DNA of 64,000 nt. Source: a virus. Both the position numbers and the translations under genes were made by a program. Under the pieces are notes generated by a model that saw only the letters and a program-made list of their open reading frames with translations, was not told the DNA's origin and ran no database searches. Where the stretch lies: the IMG/VR virus record IMGVR_UViG_3300045988_167652; one strand, written 5' to 3'. Positions 37,080 through 63,699 of the stretch are shown here, in pieces (the first letter of the stretch is position 1; the number at the start of each line of letters is the position of its first letter).

Positions 37080-37664
37080 TTATACAACTTCTATGTTAAT
37101 ATCAAAGTTACCCTTATAAGGTACATCTCTTGAAATAATATAATTATCCTTTTTAATAAGTCTTTTTACTCTTAAAGTAAATGCTTTTAAATCTTCAATA
37201 ATATCATCATCAAGATTTAGTGTATTAAGACTTTCAATTCCATTATCATAAAACCCTTTACAATCATCATTAGTAAGTTCTATAACTACTTTATATCCTT
37301 CTCTTTTAAGTATCCTGCTAATCCATTTTATTTGATCAGGTATTTTTCCATTATTATAGAAACATAATATAGAATTAATTAGGAAATCAATCTTTGATTG
37401 TACTGTATATATTATTTTAATTCCTAAATAACATTCATTACTATCACTTAGTGATATGGAATTATTTCTTAAATAAATTGTTTTTTCATCATAATAATTA
37501 TCATTTAAATTAGAATCTTTAAAGTCTAAAAGGCATTCTTCTATATACTCTTTAATAATTTTATTTAATATAGTTTTTCCCTCTTTCATAGTACTTACAA
37601 AAGAGTGGGTAGAAGAACTGTTTGTTTCAAATATATTATTTCTTGTTTTTACTTTAATATTCAT
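37080..37664 (-). CDS. Hypothetical protein with N-terminal IFETNSSSTH motif, paralog B
   Basis: The N-terminus MNIKVKTRNNIFETNSSSTHSF is shared with 36164..36634. Confidence 0.65.
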   Translation of the reverse strand: MNIKVKTRNNIFETNSSSTHSFVSTMKEGKTILNKIIKEYIEECLLDFKDSNLNDNYYDEKTIYLRNNSISLSDSNECYLGIKIIYTVQSKIDFLINSILCFYNNGKIPDQIKWISRILKREGYKVVIELTNDDCKGFYDNGIESLNTLNLDDDIIEDLKAFTLRVKRLIKKDNYIISRDVPYKGNFDINIEVV

Positions 37665-53357: not shown

Positions 53358-53676
53358 CTTTTACATCAAAGCCAAATTCTTTCATAACTTCTTTAGCTCT
53401 GTTAATATCTTTTTCAAGACTTTTAAGGTTGTCTATTACTTCCAGATACTCGATAAGATTGAAAGGATAAGTTGTTTTAACTGTTTCTAAGTACACTTTT
53501 GTTTTTTGAAGTTCTTTTTTTGCCGACAAAATCTTCATCTGTAATTGCAGATTGGTATCTTCCACCAAAAAACTCACTTCTTTTTGTAAGTCTGTAACAG
53601 GATTTAGTAATGTTTTTTCTTTGTAATTGATTCTTACTTCTTCCACTTTCTTCTGATTTAAATTCTTGTCTTCCAT
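53350..53676 (-). CDS. Hypothetical coiled-coil protein (108 aa)
   Basis: The translation is protein-like. It overlaps the 3' 200 nt of the upstream 750-codon ORF in another frame. Confidence 0.55.
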   Translation of the reverse strand: MEDKNLNQKKVEEVRINYKEKTLLNPVTDLQKEVSFLVEDTNLQLQMKILSAKKELQKTKVYLETVKTTYPFNLIEYLEVIDNLKSLEKDINRAKEVMKEFGFDVKDE

Positions 53677-55729
53677 CTTCTTTTGAATTAATTTTGTTAT
53701 TTATTATTTTAAAATCTTCTTTCTTAAAATCTTTATAGTCTTCTATTAAACAATATTCATTAGTATTACCGATATATTTATAATGAATAGAGAAATCTCC
53801 TGATTTTATATTACTCGTGATATATAAAGTTGTGTTATATAATTTAAAATCCTCTTTTCCTAAACTATAAATAATACTTCTACTTTCTCCCAAGACACCT
53901 TTATTTTTTATTATTTTATTCCAAAAATATTCACCTTCAATACTGTTTTTTATATTCAAAATTTCAGTTACTTCTCTAAGTACATAATCCGATAACCATA
54001 ATAGTTTGTTACAACGGTAGTAGTTAGCTTTATATAAAAGAGCTACATACGGATTGATATTGTTTTTTATACATAAATTCTTTTCTATTTCTGTTAAAGT
54101 AACTTCAAAATTATTTTGGGGATAGATAAGTTTATATTCAATCCCTTTAATACATTTAGGATTATTAAGTTTTTCTATAGATATTAATTTTTCTTCCCAT
54201 AATTCTTTTCCTGTTTTATTGTTTTTATTATACTTTGATTTAAAATATTCAGGTAATTCGTATTTGGAATTATATATCATTACATCTGTAAAGTACATTA
54301 AATCTTCTTCAAGTATTTGTTTTCCTGCATTAATATAATAGGCTTCATAATCATTTTTAAGCATTATGTTTCTAAAAAACGTTTTATTGTAGCAATAATA
54401 TTCTATTAAATCTTTTATAGTATTATTTAATACAAATAAATTAAAGTTATCTCTTTTATCTGTATTAGATAACCATAAAGAATTAATAAAACTTATGATT
54501 ACACTAATAGGATATTCATAAAATTTCTCATATATGTCAGCGGATATTTTATAATCCGAATCTTTAATAATTTTCTCTTTGTACCACTTATTAGTATAAT
54601 ATAAATATTCTTCTATTTTACTTGAATTTATAACTACTTCATTATCAAATTTAATACGTATATTATAATTTGTATCTTTAAATTTTTCGATAATTATGTT
54701 TTCCACTATTAATACTTCATCTTTTAAAGTAAAAAATTTATAGCCTATATTAAAGTAATTATTTTTAGAACATGCTTTTAATTTACATAAAATATCTTTT
54801 TCTTCTTCGGACATTGATTTTAAATATGAAATAAATCCGTATTTAATATCACTTATAAAAAATAATTTTCCTTGCTTTATGATATTATATTTATGTATAA
54901 GTGTGAATAGAGGACTTCTATCACATTTAATACTTTCTTCAATTTCTTTTTCAGTTAAATATATTCTGTTTGTTTTTACTCCTATATGTTCTTTATATAC
55001 ATAATCTTTTATTATTTTATTATTTTCTATTATTTCAGGAAGATTATTTGTAATAATAATTTCTTTTATGAATGTATTATTTTTCTCTTCTGAAGTTTTC
55101 TTTAATATGAAACTTTCTGCTTTTTTATTTATTTTTCCATAAATAATATTATCATATATGTTTTCTATATTAGATTTAATTTCTAATATTGAATTTATAC
55201 ATGTTTTATCTTCATAACTAATATCTAATTTTGATAAAATATCTACATGATTTTTTATATTTTCGGTTGTTACTTGTATGTCATATTTATAATATAGATA
55301 TAATATATTCCATATATCAGTTATTCCAATTTTTATTTTTTTAAGGGCTTCTATACTTATAAAGAAATTTTTATCAGGTAATTCATATATTATTCCAGAT
55401 TCAAAGAAAGTATTATTATTTACCTCTCCAAAATCTTTTATGATATTCAAGTTTTTATTTGGTTCTTCCATTATTTTGATCCATAATGAAGCTTTATTGG
55501 GAAATGCATAATGTGATTTACCACTTGTATACCATGAAAATCCTCTCTCAGCTTTGTTTGCACATTTATTTTTTTGAAATATTTCTATGTTAAATATATT
55601 ATCTTGTTTCATAGTTTCAATAGCCATTTGAGCTACTACTTCTATGGGAAAGTTTTTTAATATTTCCTTATTATAATCTTCAGGAATAACTGCATATTTA
55701 TTTTCATATAATACTATATATTTCTTCAT
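53477..55729 (-). CDS. Large hypothetical protein (up to 750 aa; 3' end uncertain)
   Basis: Long intact ORF. Its last ~65 codons are low-complexity Lys/Arg/Ser-rich and overlap 53350..53676. Confidence 0.6.
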   Translation of the reverse strand: MKKYIVLYENKYAVIPEDYNKEILKNFPIEVVAQMAIETMKQDNIFNIEIFQKNKCANKAERGFSWYTSGKSHYAFPNKASLWIKIMEEPNKNLNIIKDFGEVNNNTFFESGIIYELPDKNFFISIEALKKIKIGITDIWNILYLYYKYDIQVTTENIKNHVDILSKLDISYEDKTCINSILEIKSNIENIYDNIIYGKINKKAESFILKKTSEEKNNTFIKEIIITNNLPEIIENNKIIKDYVYKEHIGVKTNRIYLTEKEIEESIKCDRSPLFTLIHKYNIIKQGKLFFISDIKYGFISYLKSMSEEEKDILCKLKACSKNNYFNIGYKFFTLKDEVLIVENIIIEKFKDTNYNIRIKFDNEVVINSSKIEEYLYYTNKWYKEKIIKDSDYKISADIYEKFYEYPISVIISFINSLWLSNTDKRDNFNLFVLNNTIKDLIEYYCYNKTFFRNIMLKNDYEAYYINAGKQILEEDLMYFTDVMIYNSKYELPEYFKSKYNKNNKTGKELWEEKLISIEKLNNPKCIKGIEYKLIYPQNNFEVTLTEIEKNLCIKNNINPYVALLYKANYYRCNKLLWLSDYVLREVTEILNIKNSIEGEYFWNKIIKNKGVLGESRSIIYSLGKEDFKLYNTTLYITSNIKSGDFSIHYKYIGNTNEYCLIEDYKDFKKEDFKIINNKINSKEDGRQEFKSEESGRSKNQLQRKNITKSCYRLTKRSEFFGGRYQSAITDEDFVGKKRTSKNKSVLRNS

Positions 55730-55872
55730 AGTTGTTTTATTTTTATAAATGTTAATTACTTTGTTTGTATTGTAGAGGTTGGTTCATAATTATTTTATTG
55801 TTTATATTGTAATACATGAAACAACTATTTACCAACCCCCCTCCCCCCCCAATTTTACCTTTAATCATCTTC

Positions 55873-56037
55873 CTATTCTAATATAATAGATGTTCCTTTG
55901 AAATTTTTATATTTATTCATCAGGTTTTTCCTTATGTTATCTACTTTAATAGTAAATTCTATACAGGAAAGAATAAAATAAAGTAATCCTACTATAAACA
56001 GAAATACAATTAAACCTTTAATGTAAAATACTTCCAT
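55873..56037 (-). CDS. Possible small membrane protein (54 aa to TAG; 58 aa to TAA at 55861 if TAG is read through)
   Basis: ATG at 56037 and a hydrophobic segment GLIVFLFIVGLLYFILS. It is below the ORF-track size cut-off and is the only minus-strand candidate ORF I saw that ends in TAG. Confidence 0.3.
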   Translation of the reverse strand: MEVFYIKGLIVFLFIVGLLYFILSCIEFTIKVDNIRKNLMNKYKNFKGTSIILE

Positions 56038-56112
56038 AGGCAATTAATATGAATAATTAGTTTGACAAATATATAATGTATAATTTATTTATAGTGTTTA
56101 TACAGGTATAAA

Positions 56113-56688
56113 TTATCTTAATTCACTATTTGAAAAGTTAAATGATTGTTCTTTATTATTTTTATTTTCTATGAAAGTAAGGAGGTCTGAAGAATTTATT
56201 ATCTCTCCATTCTTATTTTCATTTTTTGATATGAAATACTTTAATGTTCTCATATAACTGTAATTTCCATTAAAAGATTGTACATATCTTTTAGCAGCAT
56301 TTAATATATCATCTTTAGTTATATGAGGATTTTTAGCTATAAACATTTCAAGTTTCTTTCTTACTTCTGAAGAATTTCCTCTCCAGTAAATATTAGTTCC
56401 TTCTTTTTTACCTTCAGGAAAGATGTTTTGAAGGGATTTTATAAAAGATAAATCTATTTTTTCTATCTTATTATGAGTATTACTTTTTGATAGTCCTTTA
56501 ACTATGTTTAAACATAAAGGATTTAAACTTCCGTCAGATAGAATATAGTTTTTTAGTTTCATAACTCTTAATATATAATCAAGAGTTGTATTATTTTTTT
56601 CTGCTATTTCTGAAGTTATTAATATAAGTGCTTCTGCTAATGATAGATTATATTTCTCTAACATAGCTTCATTAATAAAAATATTCAT
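56113..56688 (-). CDS. Hypothetical protein (191 aa)
   Basis: Intact ORF with a TAA stop; no secure motif. Confidence 0.6.
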   Translation of the reverse strand: MNIFINEAMLEKYNLSLAEALILITSEIAEKNNTTLDYILRVMKLKNYILSDGSLNPLCLNIVKGLSKSNTHNKIEKIDLSFIKSLQNIFPEGKKEGTNIYWRGNSSEVRKKLEMFIAKNPHITKDDILNAAKRYVQSFNGNYSYMRTLKYFISKNENKNGEIINSSDLLTFIENKNNKEQSFNFSNSELR

Positions 56689-56716
56689 ATATATGTATTT
56701 TTAATTGTAATTTAAT

Positions 56717-57106
56717 ATTTATGGTTTCATAATAGTGATTAGTTTAAGACTAACAAAGAATTAAAATTATTATGACAAGATAGTGAGATTAATCTTAGTA
56801 TAAATTTAAAATAAAGACTGTAATTTCATTTTATATTAAAGGAAAAAAGAAATTATATGGCTTATGGGGGTTAGTGAGCTACCTTTGTATATAAAAGTAT
56901 TCTTACAGTCTTTATAAGAAAACCTTTCTATAAAACACTTTGTTTATTTATATCTAAAATTCATAAGAATGCTGTGACCAAACGAGTATAAAAATGAATT
57001 TACGGATAAAATAAAGTTCAGTGATTATAGAAAGGTTATGATGAAAAAACAAAGTAGTTAGTAGGGAAAAAATCAAACTATGAAAAAATACTATGAAACC
57101 ATAAAT
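56717..57106. ncRNA. Candidate large structured RNA (or cruciform-rich replication element): nested perfect inverted repeats
   Basis: H1 pairs 56717-56731 with 57092-57106 (15 bp). H3 pairs 56811-56823 with 56903-56915 (13 bp) and continues inward as 56829-56836/56889-56896 (8 bp) and 56837-56842/56882-56887. H4 pairs 56921-56932 with 57026-57037 (12 bp). H5 pairs 56957-56964 with 56994-57001 (8 bp). All helices are nested without crossing, and the tract has no ORF. Confidence 0.4.
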
Positions 57107-57152
57107 AAACAAATATAAAAACCTCTACTAACATACTTTGTTTTATATTTTG

Positions 57153-57520
57153 TGGAGCTGGAAGGATTCAAACCTTCGTCCATAAGAAGTTAAATTTACT
57201 TTTTTACATGCTTAGTTTTATTTGTTTAGTATTTTAATTTGAACTATAATAAAACAAATTCATTCAAATATTACCTCTTCTTTATCACTTATTATTTTGA
57301 GGAAATGTATAAGCTATCTGTTTTAGTAATAATCTTAGATATTAAACAGATTAATTTATCTAAGATTTGCTTTACTTCTTTATGTTTTATAAAGTTTCAA
57401 GCTGCTAAGTTTAGTTTATAATCGAACTTTATTTTTAATAGTTTTATTAAAGTGTTACTATAAAAACACTGCATGATTAATAAATCTTTTCTTGTCTTAT
57501 GTCAAACATCTTTCAGCCCC
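57153..57520 (-). ncRNA. ssrA: tmRNA (transfer-messenger RNA), complete one-piece form
   Basis: The minus-strand RNA starts GGGGCTGAAAGATGTTTGAC and ends GGACGAAGGTTTGAATCCTTCCAGCTCCA. It has a 7-bp acceptor stem with G3:U70, a T-arm GAAGG/TTTGAAT/CCTTC, and no D or anticodon arm. The internal frame reads ...FDYKLNLAA followed by TGA (57397-57399). Downstream hairpins include ATCTTAGAT/ATCTAAGAT. CCA is not encoded. Confidence 0.85.
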
Positions 57521-57656
57521 TTTTATTTATTAATTTATTAAAAGATAGAAAAAGTTTTGCAGGATAATAAACATATAAATCAAATTTAAAACCTTTATCA
57601 TGAAAAAAAACAAATCAGTTAAGTTTATCCTATACTTTCTTTTACTACCTTTATTT

Positions 57657-58883
57657 TTATTGTTTTTTCTTTATGTATTCTTCTAAAGTAATTTCTTTTA
57701 CATATTTATTATCCACTTCTTTTATAGCTTTATTTAAATAGTCTTCATCCGAAGTGTTTTTATAGTAAAAGATAAATATTTTAGGTGATTCATGCCTTAA
57801 AAGCCTACCTAACTTTTGTATGAACATTCCTGTAGTACCATCAAGTTGTGTGATGATTCCTATAGGAGTATTAACTAAATTAGTTCCTTCTCTAAGCATT
57901 TTCACTGTAAAGATACGATTAATTTTGTGATTATTAAAATCACTAAGCATATCTTTATTTTTTGATTTACTATGTAAAGCATATTTACTTCCACCAAGCT
58001 CATTACATTGTTCGATATTAGTGGTAAATGCTATTATTCTTTCATCTTCATTAAAGGATTTTATTAATTTCTTTACATGTCTTGTTTTTGTTTTACCTAA
58101 GAAATTCTTTCTTCTTAATCCTTCTCTTAAAGATAATAGTGGAGAAATTCTTCCTTTTTTTGATAATTCTGAATAAGCAGATACTCTTTGATCAATATAA
58201 TCGTAAATATTTTTTACTGAATCTTCTACTATTAAAGTGGGCTTATCTTTTATGTTTTTATTTTTTTCTTTACTAATATATCTTTGTAAAGAATTAAACC
58301 TCTTCAAACATACTTCCTCCCCCCCTTTACCCTTCCTTACTTCTATTTTATCCATTAAAGTGATGGATAAAGTAAGTGGAATAAGTATTATCTCAGGAGT
58401 AGGTAAAATATTATTTTTAATGGCTTCTTTAAGTCCATATTTCATGAATTTTAAATTGTTTATAAAGCTTCTTAAAACATATTTCAAATCCCAAGATATT
58501 GTGGCTGATAACCCAATAAATCTTGTATTAGTATTGTTAGATAATATCTTTTTTAAATGTCTTATTCTTTCAGCTGATAAGTTATGTACTTCATCACAAA
58601 TAACTGTATCATATTTATTGTTTACTACCTTTTTTAGTGAAGCATAGCAAAGAATAAATATGTTTTCAGTAGAATAATTCCATTTATGAATTTCTTCTAA
58701 CCATCCATTAATGTGTGCTCTTTCTGATACTACTATAAGAGTTTTAGGATTTATACGTTTATTTCCTAAAGCACAATCTAGGCTTATCTTTGTTTTTCCT
58801 ACTCCTGTAGCAAATTCAAGTATTAAGTTATCATTGTTATTAAAGTGTTTTATAATTGTAGTGTTTAATTTCTGTCTATCCAT
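57657..58883 (-). CDS. SF2 DEAD/DEAH-box-type helicase
   Basis: Motif I is ATGVGKT, motif II is CDEVHN (DExH), motif III is LSAT and motif VI is QKLGRLLR. Confidence 0.8.
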   Translation of the reverse strand: MDRQKLNTTIIKHFNNNDNLILEFATGVGKTKISLDCALGNKRINPKTLIVVSERAHINGWLEEIHKWNYSTENIFILCYASLKKVVNNKYDTVICDEVHNLSAERIRHLKKILSNNTNTRFIGLSATISWDLKYVLRSFINNLKFMKYGLKEAIKNNILPTPEIILIPLTLSITLMDKIEVRKGKGGEEVCLKRFNSLQRYISKEKNKNIKDKPTLIVEDSVKNIYDYIDQRVSAYSELSKKGRISPLLSLREGLRRKNFLGKTKTRHVKKLIKSFNEDERIIAFTTNIEQCNELGGSKYALHSKSKNKDMLSDFNNHKINRIFTVKMLREGTNLVNTPIGIITQLDGTTGMFIQKLGRLLRHESPKIFIFYYKNTSDEDYLNKAIKEVDNKYVKEITLEEYIKKKQ

Positions 58884-59402: not shown

Positions 59403-59723
59403 TTAAAGAACTATTTCATTTGTGTAGTATAACTTTCCTGTATATCCTCTTTCTTTGATTTCTTCTAATAGTTGTCTATTAGTAAAAGTAGCTAATTCAG
59501 GATTTTTATATACTTTATGTAGTACTCTCTTTTCTTCTTTTTGTTTTTGTACTATTGTTGTATTACTTTGTTTGGATAATTTTTTTTGGTATCTTTCTCT
59601 TGACAATCTTTTATCACATTCTTTACAATAAGAATGTCTACCAAATTTGTTTTTACCTTTAGAAAAACTACTTTCAGGTAGTTCTTGCTTACATTTTAAA
59701 CAGGTTATTAATCTTTCTTCCAT
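59403..59723 (-). CDS. Zinc-ribbon protein (106 aa)
   Basis: CLKC...(20 aa)...CKEC forms a four-Cys ribbon, followed by a basic region. Confidence 0.55.
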   Translation of the reverse strand: MEERLITCLKCKQELPESSFSKGKNKFGRHSYCKECDKRLSRERYQKKLSKQSNTTIVQKQKEEKRVLHKVYKNPELATFTNRQLLEEIKERGYTGKLYYTNEIVL

Positions 59724-61451: not shown

Positions 61452-61495
61452 TATCGGATATTGTTCTATTGTTATGATAAACTACGAACTATAAG

Positions 61496-61570
61496 TGTTC
61501 CTTATTAGACTTGAACTAATACTCTTTTCCTTATGAGGGAATTGCTCTAACCTACTTGAGCTAAGGGAAC
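61496..61570 (-). tRNA. tRNA with CAU anticodon (elongator Met or Ile2 type)
   Basis: A 75-nt cloverleaf on the minus strand. Acceptor is GTTCCCT/AAGGAAC (one C-A mismatch); D-arm is GCTC-AAGTAGGTTA-GAGC; anticodon arm is ATTCC-CTCATAA-GGAAA; T-arm is ATTAG-TTCAAGT-CTAAT; discriminator is A. It lacks the three G-C pairs of initiator anticodon stems. Confidence 0.85.
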
Positions 61571-61942: not shown

Positions 61943-62116
61943 AATTTTATATTTTACTTTTATTTGCTTTTTATATTTCTTTGTCAGTAATTATTTGTGG
62001 TGAAGGGTTGGATGGGTAAGGGGGGTAAGTTGTTAGTTGCTATTTTGTACATTAATTTGATAGTAAATTAAAATAAATAATAGAGAGCTTTTACACTCTC
62101 TATTATCTTTAATGGA

Positions 62117-62467
62117 TTACCATTCCTCCATTTCTTCCCAATTCCTGTCTTTACAAATAATGAAGGTTTCTTTAGGATTTCTAAGTTCTCCCGTTACTTC
62201 ATCCTTATCTGAAAGGATGCAGTGGAGTACTACCAACTCCCCTTCTAATTCTCTTAGCTTTTCAATTGAGTTGATTTCTTTTTTGTGTTTCTCTCCCACT
62301 GAGACTTCAGTCCCAGCGATATTGAAAAGCACAAAAGAATCTTGCAACCCTTCGTTGTTTGTGTAGGTAATTTCTGACTTACCCACTTTTCTACTGCCTG
62401 TTTTTGCAAGCTGGTTGTTCAAAAATTCTACAAATGACCATCTTTGAATGATTTCGCTGTGCTTCAT
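62117..62467 (-). CDS. Hypothetical protein (116 aa) in a less AT-rich segment
   Basis: Intact ORF. It is visibly richer in G/C than the rest of the window. Confidence 0.55.
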   Translation of the reverse strand: MKHSEIIQRWSFVEFLNNQLAKTGSRKVGKSEITYTNNEGLQDSFVLFNIAGTEVSVGEKHKKEINSIEKLRELEGELVVLHCILSDKDEVTGELRNPKETFIICKDRNWEEMEEW

Positions 62468-62992: not shown

Positions 62993-63262
62993 ATGACTTC
63001 ATATAAATTGTTTATTTTTTAGATGATTTATCCCGATTAAATTCAATTAATCTCTTCATTGAAAAGATATAGAATTTTAATTCTATTGTCTTCATTTTGT
63101 TTGAATATTATTTTGTTTATATTGACCTTTTAACTCATAGGATTTTCTCACTATGAAACTTATAATTTTCTATAAATATAGATTATTATAAGAGGTTTCA
63201 ACTTTTATTTAATCCTCGTTTAAGTCGTTCATTAGAATATTTTCGAGGTTCATGAATAATTT

Positions 63263-63306
63263 AAAAAAATAATAGTAATAAGTTAGCTACTTTTATTACT
63301 ATTATT
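63263..63306 (-). terminator. Hairpin terminator downstream of 63700..63975 (minus strand)
   Basis: 14-bp stem AATAATAGTAATAA (63268-63281) / TTATTACTATTATT (63293-63306). It is preceded on the + strand by an A-run, which gives a T-tail on the minus strand. A second 11-bp hairpin follows at 63310-63338. Confidence 0.5.
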
Positions 63307-63699
63307 CCCATAAATAATAATGATTAGTTATTATTTATAGTGGAGCTATAGGTTTTGTTATAATTGCTCTTACTTTACTATTATAACTACATAATTGAAT
63401 AGTATATTATCCAATTAATCCTAAATGTAATCTTTTTAACTATAATATCATTGATATACTAATATTATAATTATTCTTCGGACATCAAAGACTTTTATTT
63501 AGTCCCTAATAGTACTTATGAATACTATTATTCTTCATTTTCATTACTAAATGCTATCTTAGAAAGTGTACTTTTTTCTAAGTGAATCTAATAATTTATA
63601 GAAGATTTAATTCCTAAATTGGTATGATTAAATGATTATCTCTGCGTAAATATTGTACACTATTAAGTGTTCAACACCTGAAGAAAAAGCTGGAAGAGG

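Follow-up and report, generated by a model that had tools for sequence, protein, structure and literature searches.

The gene-free tract at 56689-57149 in the genome of a crAss-like phage (Crassvirales, ~25% G+C) was analysed within a stretch of 64,000 nucleotides (IMG/VR record IMGVR_UViG_3300045988_167652), which is called the window below and on which all positions are counted. The tract extends from the 3' end of a transfer-messenger RNA (tmRNA) to the start of a gene homologous to the 'replisome organizer protein' genes of Crassvirales (the organizer gene), and its core is three tandem independent hairpins, Hd, He and Hf (~345 nt, 56806-57149), not one closed fold. The coordinates of the features at the locus are collected in Table 1. 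Few viruses of the human gut are as abundant as crAss-like phages, and to our knowledge almost nothing is known of their non-coding elements; a literature search found no report of tmRNAs in crAss-like phages and nothing on crAss origins or structured RNAs.

Table 1. Features of the tract and of its immediate neighbours in the window
Feature	Positions	Strand	Remark
Organizer-like gene, 191 amino acids (aa)	56113..56688	-	Homologous to Crassvirales 'replisome organizer protein'
Putative promoter/leader of the organizer gene	56689..56805	-	Outside the structured core
Outer helix, 5' arm	56716..56731	.	Overlaps the relic start codon region
Hd	56811..56915	+	Hairpin; best-conserved module; strand given is the better-folding one, not proven
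He	56921..57037	+	Hairpin; 13-bp perfect base stem and four inner stems
Hf	57046..57144	.	Hairpin; ~20-bp stem (11 + 8, one bulge); pair probability 0.94
Outer helix, 3' arm	57092..57107	.	Inside the Hf loop; overlaps the competing pairing 57101-13/56939-51
Phage tmRNA	57150..57520	-	Rfam RF00023; neighbour of the element, not part of it
Spacer, helicase stop to tmRNA	57521..57656	-	Invariant block TTATCCTGCAAAACTTTTTC at 57548-57567, minus strand
Superfamily 2 (SF2) helicase	57657..58883	-	ResIII, DEAD and Helicase_C domains

The tract is part of the replication module: it directly precedes the organizer gene and has a helicase gene on either side. The organizer gene matched genes of cr116_1, IAS virus and Kolpuevirus that are annotated as 'replisome organizer protein', and the top tblastn matches of the SF2 helicase were from uncultured crAss phages and Bacteroides phages. 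As had been stated in an earlier reading of this DNA (the initial annotation), the ~460 nt of the tract are free of genes: no open reading frame (ORF) was found, whether by the standard code or when TAG or TGA was read as sense, at least six TAA codons stand in every frame, and mini-ORFs starting from conserved ATGs were rejected because their length was not conserved.

The tmRNA does adjoin the tract, as described in the initial annotation. It was matched by RF00023 over its full length (model positions 1-374) with 46.7 bits and an E value of 7e-17, 0.3 bits under the Rfam gathering score of 47. It is very AT-rich (24% G+C), was not detected by ARAGORN, and its tag frame ends in ...KFDYKLNLAA-stop. 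A duplicate of the tmRNA or an att-type repeat was searched for by local alignment on both strands and rejected, 90 and 114 of 300 shuffles scoring as high. A search of IMG/VR with a pattern of the tmRNA 3' end was likewise discarded, the matches being the same lineage and unrelated sequences (the one in contig L021 was read by eye as a tRNA cluster).

Inverted repeats and hairpins of the tract

Perfect arms were found at 56716-56731/57092-57107 (16 bp, the outer helix), 56811-56823/56903-56915 (13 bp) and 56921-56933/57025-57037 (13 bp), together with an 8-bp helix (AAATTCAT/ATGAATTT) at 56957-64/56994-57001 and a fifth long helix at 57046-57064/57125-57144 (19/20 bp), which crosses the outer helix. 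The four helices of the initial annotation are real and lie within 1 nt of where it had placed them; the fifth helix, that of Hf, and a competing 13-bp pairing at 56939-51/57101-13 had been missed. Its view that such repeats are beyond chance was borne out, with four perfect inverted repeats of at least 13 bp in the tract against a mean of 0.03 in dinucleotide shuffles, none of 1000 of which reached four. Among the other 461-nt windows (n = 277), 265 were without a perfect repeat of at least 12 bp and 10 had one.

The minimum free energy (MFE) of the whole tract was -108.7 kcal/mol (z -7.2) on the plus strand and -84.3 kcal/mol (z -5.4) on the minus strand, and the tract was the top outlier on the plus strand among all sliding 460-nt windows of the 64 kb. 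For the core as plus-strand RNA, -91.0 kcal/mol (z -10.3) was obtained, the MFE structure being the centroid. In the thermodynamic ensemble, the pair probability was 0.94-0.97 for the three hairpins against 0.002 for the outer helix. Taken singly, the hairpins of the close clade each departed strongly from chance on either strand (z -3.8 to -8.9).

In the initial annotation, the helices of 56717-57106 were put together into a closed multi-branch architecture; on such a model, the outer helix would close a single RNA of 390 nt, which would be functionally coupled to the tmRNA. The 16-bp helix is indeed perfect in the window genome, its enforcement costs only 5 kcal/mol, and the two differences in relatives are G-U-compatible on the plus strand; but, besides its very low pair probability, the helix crosses Hf, which is supported by covariation, and its 5' arm is accounted for by a relic start codon. 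Only the window genome has a perfect helix: 10 of 11 relatives (denoted by L numbers, L062 being the outgroup) carry 1-3 non-Watson-Crick pairs with no compensatory change, among them an A-A mismatch in L068, L069 and L071 and a C-A in L064, and the helix is absent in L062. With the tract also persisting in genomes without the tmRNA (see below), a closed fold is highly improbable.

Hd is composed of a 13-bp perfect base stem, a middle stem of 8 + 6 bp with a 1-nt bulge on the 3' side, a conserved 15-nt A-rich bulge (AAAAAAGAAAUUAUA) and an 8-bp apical stem, which contains three G-U pairs on the plus strand, the T-G wobbles already pointed out in the initial annotation. Its MFE was -31.4 kcal/mol (z -5.25) on the plus strand and -20.5 kcal/mol (z -3.84) on the minus strand, and the same architecture was found in L062 with z values of -5.6 and -4.6, respectively. 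A scan with the apex motif GGCTWAT..TTAGTRAGC gave more than 80 matches, about the chance rate by a rough estimate, and was uninformative. The MFE of He was -35.5 kcal/mol (z -7.2) on the plus strand and -29.5 kcal/mol (z -5.9) on the minus strand. The loop of Hf is 57 nt long and ~75% A on the plus strand, and contains a repeated motif, CTATGAAA, which is kept in L062; the motif occurs twice in direct orientation, with one imperfect inverted copy. T-rich runs follow Hf on both strands, so that it looks like a bidirectional terminator, and its end lies 5 nt from the tmRNA 3' end; a terminator scan found no terminator-like site in 56689-57149, Hf having U-runs but a 57-nt loop. The three hairpins showed no similarity to one another.

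The first 117 nt of the tract (56689-56805) folded like shuffles, with z values of -0.73 on the plus strand and -0.13 on the minus strand. The complement of 56719-56730 reads ATG AAA CCA TAA, the relic start of an N-terminal extension of the organizer gene, and a conserved TCTTTG box stands 23 nt upstream of the relic ATG. The extension is intact in L062 (MIPH-YVNKNY...) and in L078, a third lineage (MKPQKYINNQY...). Its 16-17 residues were lost in the window clade, where ATG AAA CCA CAA... of L078 is replaced by ATG AAA CCA TAA, and therefore translation starts at a downstream ATG in this clade. The segment 56689-56805 is thus taken as the putative promoter and leader of the organizer gene, in which the TCTTTG box may have a role. 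The long structured 5' leader of 56113..56688, offered as an alternative in the initial annotation, accordingly survives as a leader of 117 nt, and it is this part which is not structured.

Relatives and selection on the pairing

Relatives were collected by a protein search with the organizer gene and by contig look-ups, which yielded 12 distinct tract versions from metagenomes; a scan of IMG/VR and of JGI/ENA metagenomes gave near-identical relatives only. Ten versions are close (92-98% identity), the outgroup L062 has an organizer 77% identical and a tract ~68% identical, and L078 is represented by a short fragment only. In 16 more distant crAss relatives (L004-L019) and in the annotated Kolpuevirus, no gap was found and the upstream gene abuts or overlaps the organizer gene; therefore the tmRNA and the tract are specific to a small clade. 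A weak covariance-model match in L005/L028 (22.5 bits, E 0.08) is located in a coding region and was taken as chance.

Since MAFFT put the Hd and He stems of L062 out of register, Hd was aligned by a covariance model and He by hand. In the ten close sequences alone, Hd was 95.7% paired, with no both-sided change and no covariation. The Hd covariance model R1 recovered the L062 copy with 64.7 bits (E 1.8e-11), and in six pairs of Hd both partners had changed; shuffles gave 1.2 such pairs (six was reached in 1 of 500) and slid registers 0-2. In Hf, the pair 57050/57140 is C-G in most versions, U-G in L001 and U-A in L072, and the lower stem in L062 has two more both-sided changes, which brings the total for Hf to three. 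In the base stem of He in L062 (AAUUUUUCCAU/AUGGAAAGGUU), read by hand, two C-G pairs are replaced by U-G and one U-A pair by C-G. Both-sided changes came mostly from this one outgroup sequence. The search for covariation in relatives suggested by the initial annotation was thereby answered with pairing kept through changes on both sides, and these compensatory changes in Hd and Hf show that the pairing has been kept by selection. The loop motifs are conserved across 32% divergence. The share of variable columns was 7.2% for the tract and 3.8% for the tmRNA; third codon positions in the flanking genes reached 12-15%, and the spacer ahead of the tmRNA 20%. The tract evolves at about half the synonymous-site rate.

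The interior of He is invariant in the close clade and mostly deleted or unpaired in L062, where He retains only the base stem and UUUAUUU/AAAUAAA (-9.7 kcal/mol, z -1.5, on the plus strand; -13.9 kcal/mol, z -2.2, on the minus strand). As the interior of Hf is mostly lost there as well, Hd is regarded as the conserved heart of the element.

The tmRNA is present in L062 and exactly absent from L068 and L071, in which the tmRNA-less junction is at short TTTTAT(A)TTT repeats. Its loss in these two genomes would most simply be a secondary deletion, because the outgroup carries the tmRNA. Despite having no tmRNA, both genomes keep the tract at 95% identity, which shows that the tract does not depend on the tmRNA and that the adjacency is incidental; a functional association with the tmRNA, beside which the initial annotation had placed the tract, is not supported. 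The number of hairpins is not fixed either. In L069, an insert of 214 nt between Hf and the tmRNA (locus 2328-2541, minus orientation) contains two more long hairpins (-39.5 kcal/mol). In the second of them, a loop resembling that of Hf (local alignment z 2.2, 12 of 500 shuffles) sits on a different stem; an 11-bp perfect stem (AAGGACAATAA/TTATTGTCCTT) enclosing an A-rich, Hf-like loop was read in the insert. The insert holds a diverged Hf paralogue, which shows that hairpin modules can be gained and diverge yet stay hairpins.

The tract was then compared with known families and searched for in other places. The Rfam scan recommended in the initial annotation was done by cmscan of 56000-57800 (Rfam 15, E <= 10) and gave only the tmRNA and one spurious match to a long non-coding RNA inside the tmRNA, and thus no match in 56689-57149, including GOLLD, ROOL, HEARO, group I/II introns, 6S and riboswitches. 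The scan of the whole window at the Rfam gathering scores gave tRNA only. There was no second copy of the tract in the window, the matches in IMG/VR were only at the orthologous locus of two relatives, and the termini of Hd in 185,579 GTDB species genomes gave four unrelated chance matches and no copy of Hd (He and Hf were not in that scan).

These copy searches bear on the reading by which the hairpins would be selfish or neutral palindromes, namely remnants of miniature inverted-repeat transposable elements (MITEs) or of hairpin repeats in a permissive hot spot, the arms of which are kept by template-switch repair. As in MITEs, perfect terminal inverted repeats of 13-16 bp bound each unit as its base stem and the interiors are less perfect; the site is an insertion hot spot, with gain and loss of the tmRNA, the 214-nt insert of L069 and variable cargo downstream; and the interiors of He and Hf decay in L062. 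Against this, a dispersed mobile element was rejected because each genome carries the tract once and no further copy turned up in the window or IMG/VR, nor any of Hd in the GTDB genomes; arms belonging to a mobile element at other loci had been named in the initial annotation as an observation that would speak against its reading. The hairpins are also mutually dissimilar, no target-site duplication was evident (flanks read by eye showed no duplication past A/T dinucleotides, a weak test in AT-rich DNA), and the slow evolution of the tract relative to synonymous sites and its conserved loop motifs do not fit neutral remnants. Such an origin is considered quite unlikely. As judged from these comparisons, the tract belongs to no named family and is regarded as a phage intergenic hairpin array or a candidate non-coding RNA.

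Surroundings of the tract in the window

In the plus-strand gene block at 1-30400, TAG serves as a sense codon: with TAG read through, 98% of the block is covered by stop-to-stop ORFs of at least 150 aa, which then reach 3908 codons, against 24% by the standard code; TGA read-through had no effect. The minus-strand block uses the standard code. No suppressor tRNA was found in the window, in which the only tRNA is a tRNA-Met at 61495-61570.

Between the organizer gene and the gene for the DnaB-like helicase there is a slot with variable cargo (53477-56043, minus strand). Here it is occupied by ORFs of 56 aa and 750 aa, the product of the latter having no match in Pfam, PHROGs, NCBIfam, PADLOC or PDB sequences; the same slot is occupied by genes of 203 aa and 62 aa in L063, by 389 aa in L068 and by 578 aa in L070. 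In more distant crAss phages, the organizer gene adjoins the next gene (~400 aa) with no extra cargo between them. A 106-aa ORF just upstream of the SF2 helicase (59403-59723, minus strand) resembles endonuclease VII / HNH proteins, and the DnaB gene of a Kolpuevirus relative is split by a GIY endonuclease; homing-type nucleases seem to be drawn to this replication module.

A second gene-free tract of ~700 nt (62993-63699, no ORF of at least 40 aa) and an adjacent, unusually G+C-rich region (61986-62445, G+C 0.35) with a strong fold are among the best-folding windows, and neither had an Rfam match. At the He/Hf junction, 57036-57052 is a 17-nt perfect reverse complement of 37478-37494 (TATGATGAAAAAACAAA). 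This match sits inside the gene 37080..37664, is A-rich and had a BLAST E value of 0.001, and is probably due to chance.

Strand, possible nature and meaning of the element

Our preferred reading, which is held tentatively, is that the active form of the tract may be a structured RNA read from the plus strand, antisense to the replication genes. Such an RNA would start in the divergent promoter region beside the organizer gene and would end at Hf, the stem and U-run of which abut the 3' end of the convergent tmRNA. Selection acts on how the hairpins pair and on a few motifs left single-stranded, namely the loop of Hf and, in Hd, the A-rich bulge and the apex; antisense or decoy control of the replication module might be the function of the RNA, which is only a guess. 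We infer the RNA form, the plus-strand sense and both end points from the following features of the sequence. As RNA, the z value of the core was -10.3 on the plus strand against -6.8 on the minus strand. The plus strand gave the more stable Hd in all 12 sequences and the more stable He in 11 of 12, and the apical stem of Hd requires its three G-U pairs, which both subclades retain. In the hairpins, the purine fraction of the plus strand was 0.56-0.61, against 0.41-0.45 in every known minus-strand feature, the tmRNA included, and in other intergenic DNA. The difference between plus-strand and minus-strand MFE was -23 to -31 kcal/mol, against +7.7 +/- 12.5 kcal/mol in the surrounding block of minus-strand genes (~2.6 standard deviations). 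A U-rich run follows Hf on the plus strand.

Several observations weigh against this reading. All the flanking genes and the tmRNA are on the minus strand. No recognisable promoter was found on the plus strand, where no Bacteroidetes-type -7 box stands upstream of Hd, and nothing upstream of Hd is conserved with L062; a sigma-70 consensus scan was at chance level. All three hairpins have a U-rich run behind them on the minus strand too, and DNA parameters gave equally good folds for the two strands. Wobble-type helix substitutions outside the Hd apex were not strand-biased (~10 G-T to 7 A-C on the plus strand; 5:3 with Watson-Crick-only helix definitions). The comparison comprises ~12 distinct sequences in two subclades, the both-sided changes in Hd were read from a model-guided (structure-fitted) alignment and all come from one lineage, and what is left of He and Hf in L062 has z values of only -1.5 to -2.5. 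Of the novel structured element in the initial annotation, its non-random, conserved and non-coding nature and its lack of an Rfam family were upheld, while the strand is indicated solely by composition and the G-U pairs.

The orientation of the neighbours would suit a processing, terminator or insulator array on the minus strand, which would be co-transcribed with the helicase and the tmRNA, would release and terminate the tmRNA and protect RNA ends, and would set the upstream unit apart from the organizer gene with its own promoter. RNase III processing hairpins stand between T7 genes in a like manner. Hf begins 5 nt after the tmRNA 3' end, and U-rich runs follow Hf (UUUUUUCAU), He (UUUUCUUAU) and Hd (UUUUAAAUUU), although such runs are expected in a strand with 43% T. 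The minus-strand fold is itself non-random (z -6.8), the wobble substitutions have no strand bias, and Hd of L068 has the same stability on either strand. Upstream of the tmRNA, the spacer contains, besides its conserved block, a Bacteroidetes-type TTTG...TAAATTTG match at 57588-57581 as a putative promoter, and both are kept in the tmRNA-less genomes directly before Hf. It is the one full match to the Bacteroidetes TAnnTTTG motif, which is not conserved in L062, where the TAAATTTG box is not retained; the block TTATCCTGCAAAACTTTTTC occurs once in the window, so that no phage promoter motif could be derived from it. Such an array is doubtful, in that the composition of the tract is inverted relative to all other minus-strand transcripts and intergenic regions, on the minus strand a loop of 39 nt takes the place of the apical stem of Hd, and loops of 40-57 nt make poor intrinsic terminators, of which the terminator scan found none.

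The equal folding of the strands with DNA parameters (z -7.5 on the plus strand and -7.0 on the minus strand) and the nearly equal frequency of G-T and A-C intermediates would suit an element acting at the DNA level, such as an origin or a priming or loading site, the repeats of which extrude as cruciforms or fold in single-stranded DNA beside the organizer gene. Its place within the replication module, where it directly precedes the organizer homologue, and the repeated CTATGAAA motif in the Hf loop, kept in L062, agree with this. However, no iteron-type array was found in the tract (only weak two-copy direct repeats of 15-21 nt), the cumulative GC skew has no turning point there, and the tract is not more AT-rich than the genome. 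The position is empty in the 16 distant relatives and Kolpuevirus, so that an origin would have to have been inserted; the number of modules varies (the two extra hairpins in L069), and an apical stem of Hd that depends on G-U pairs is conserved. The replication origin put forward as an alternative in the initial annotation is weakened by these results, and a DNA-level element is considered unlikely.

The tract can be set beside several known systems. GOLLD (RF01998) and ROOL (RF03087) are phage structured RNAs beside tRNA genes, and the tract resembles them as a structured non-coding phage element of >300 nt beside a tRNA-like gene. It differs from them in its simple tandem hairpins in place of an ornate multi-junction fold, in having no match to their models, in its restriction to one small crAss-like clade and in that its adjacency to the tmRNA is dispensable. 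The R1-R5 elements of T7 are intergenic RNase III processing hairpins of phage polycistronic transcripts, to which the tract is similar in its intergenic imperfect hairpins with U-rich runs after a stable RNA; its hairpins, in contrast, are 100-117 nt long, their loops measure 40-57 nt, and it is the opposite strand that is purine-rich and folds better. With hairpin-forming palindromic repeats and MITEs, such as ERIC, REP/BIME and Correia, it shares imperfect palindromes of ~100-130 bp, perfect terminal inverted repeats, an intergenic hot spot and a variable number of modules (L069), but it is single-copy, with dissimilar modules which evolve slower than synonymous sites and without evident target duplications. 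The complementary-strand origin of phage G4 consists of three hairpins and the origins of lactococcal phages carry repeats; these and the plasmid ssoA have in common with the tract the hairpins in a replication module, whereas the tract belongs to a double-stranded DNA phage with its own helicases, has no iterons and no skew, and is not conserved in position.

It is also conceivable, and rather improbable, that the tract represents an undescribed family of phage non-coding RNA made of modular long hairpins with A-rich loops and read antisense to the replication genes, an accessory regulator or decoy in a TAG-recoded phage with a tmRNA. If this were true, the tract could, for instance, belong to a small 'stable-RNA island' that manipulates host translation or RNA turnover. 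In a TAG-recoding phage with its own tmRNA, a link between stop-codon recoding and ribosome rescue is possible.

The practical outcome is a corrected anatomy of the tract, with three hairpins, clear boundaries and a covariance model. The very narrow distribution and the simple architecture limit the present importance of the element. For the phages themselves, the finding means that one clade keeps, under selection, a sizeable structured element within its replication module, and that a tmRNA was captured at the same site. Should the element act as an RNA, Crassvirales would have in it one of their first candidate regulatory RNAs; should it work at the DNA level, it would point to a signal for replication or recombination.

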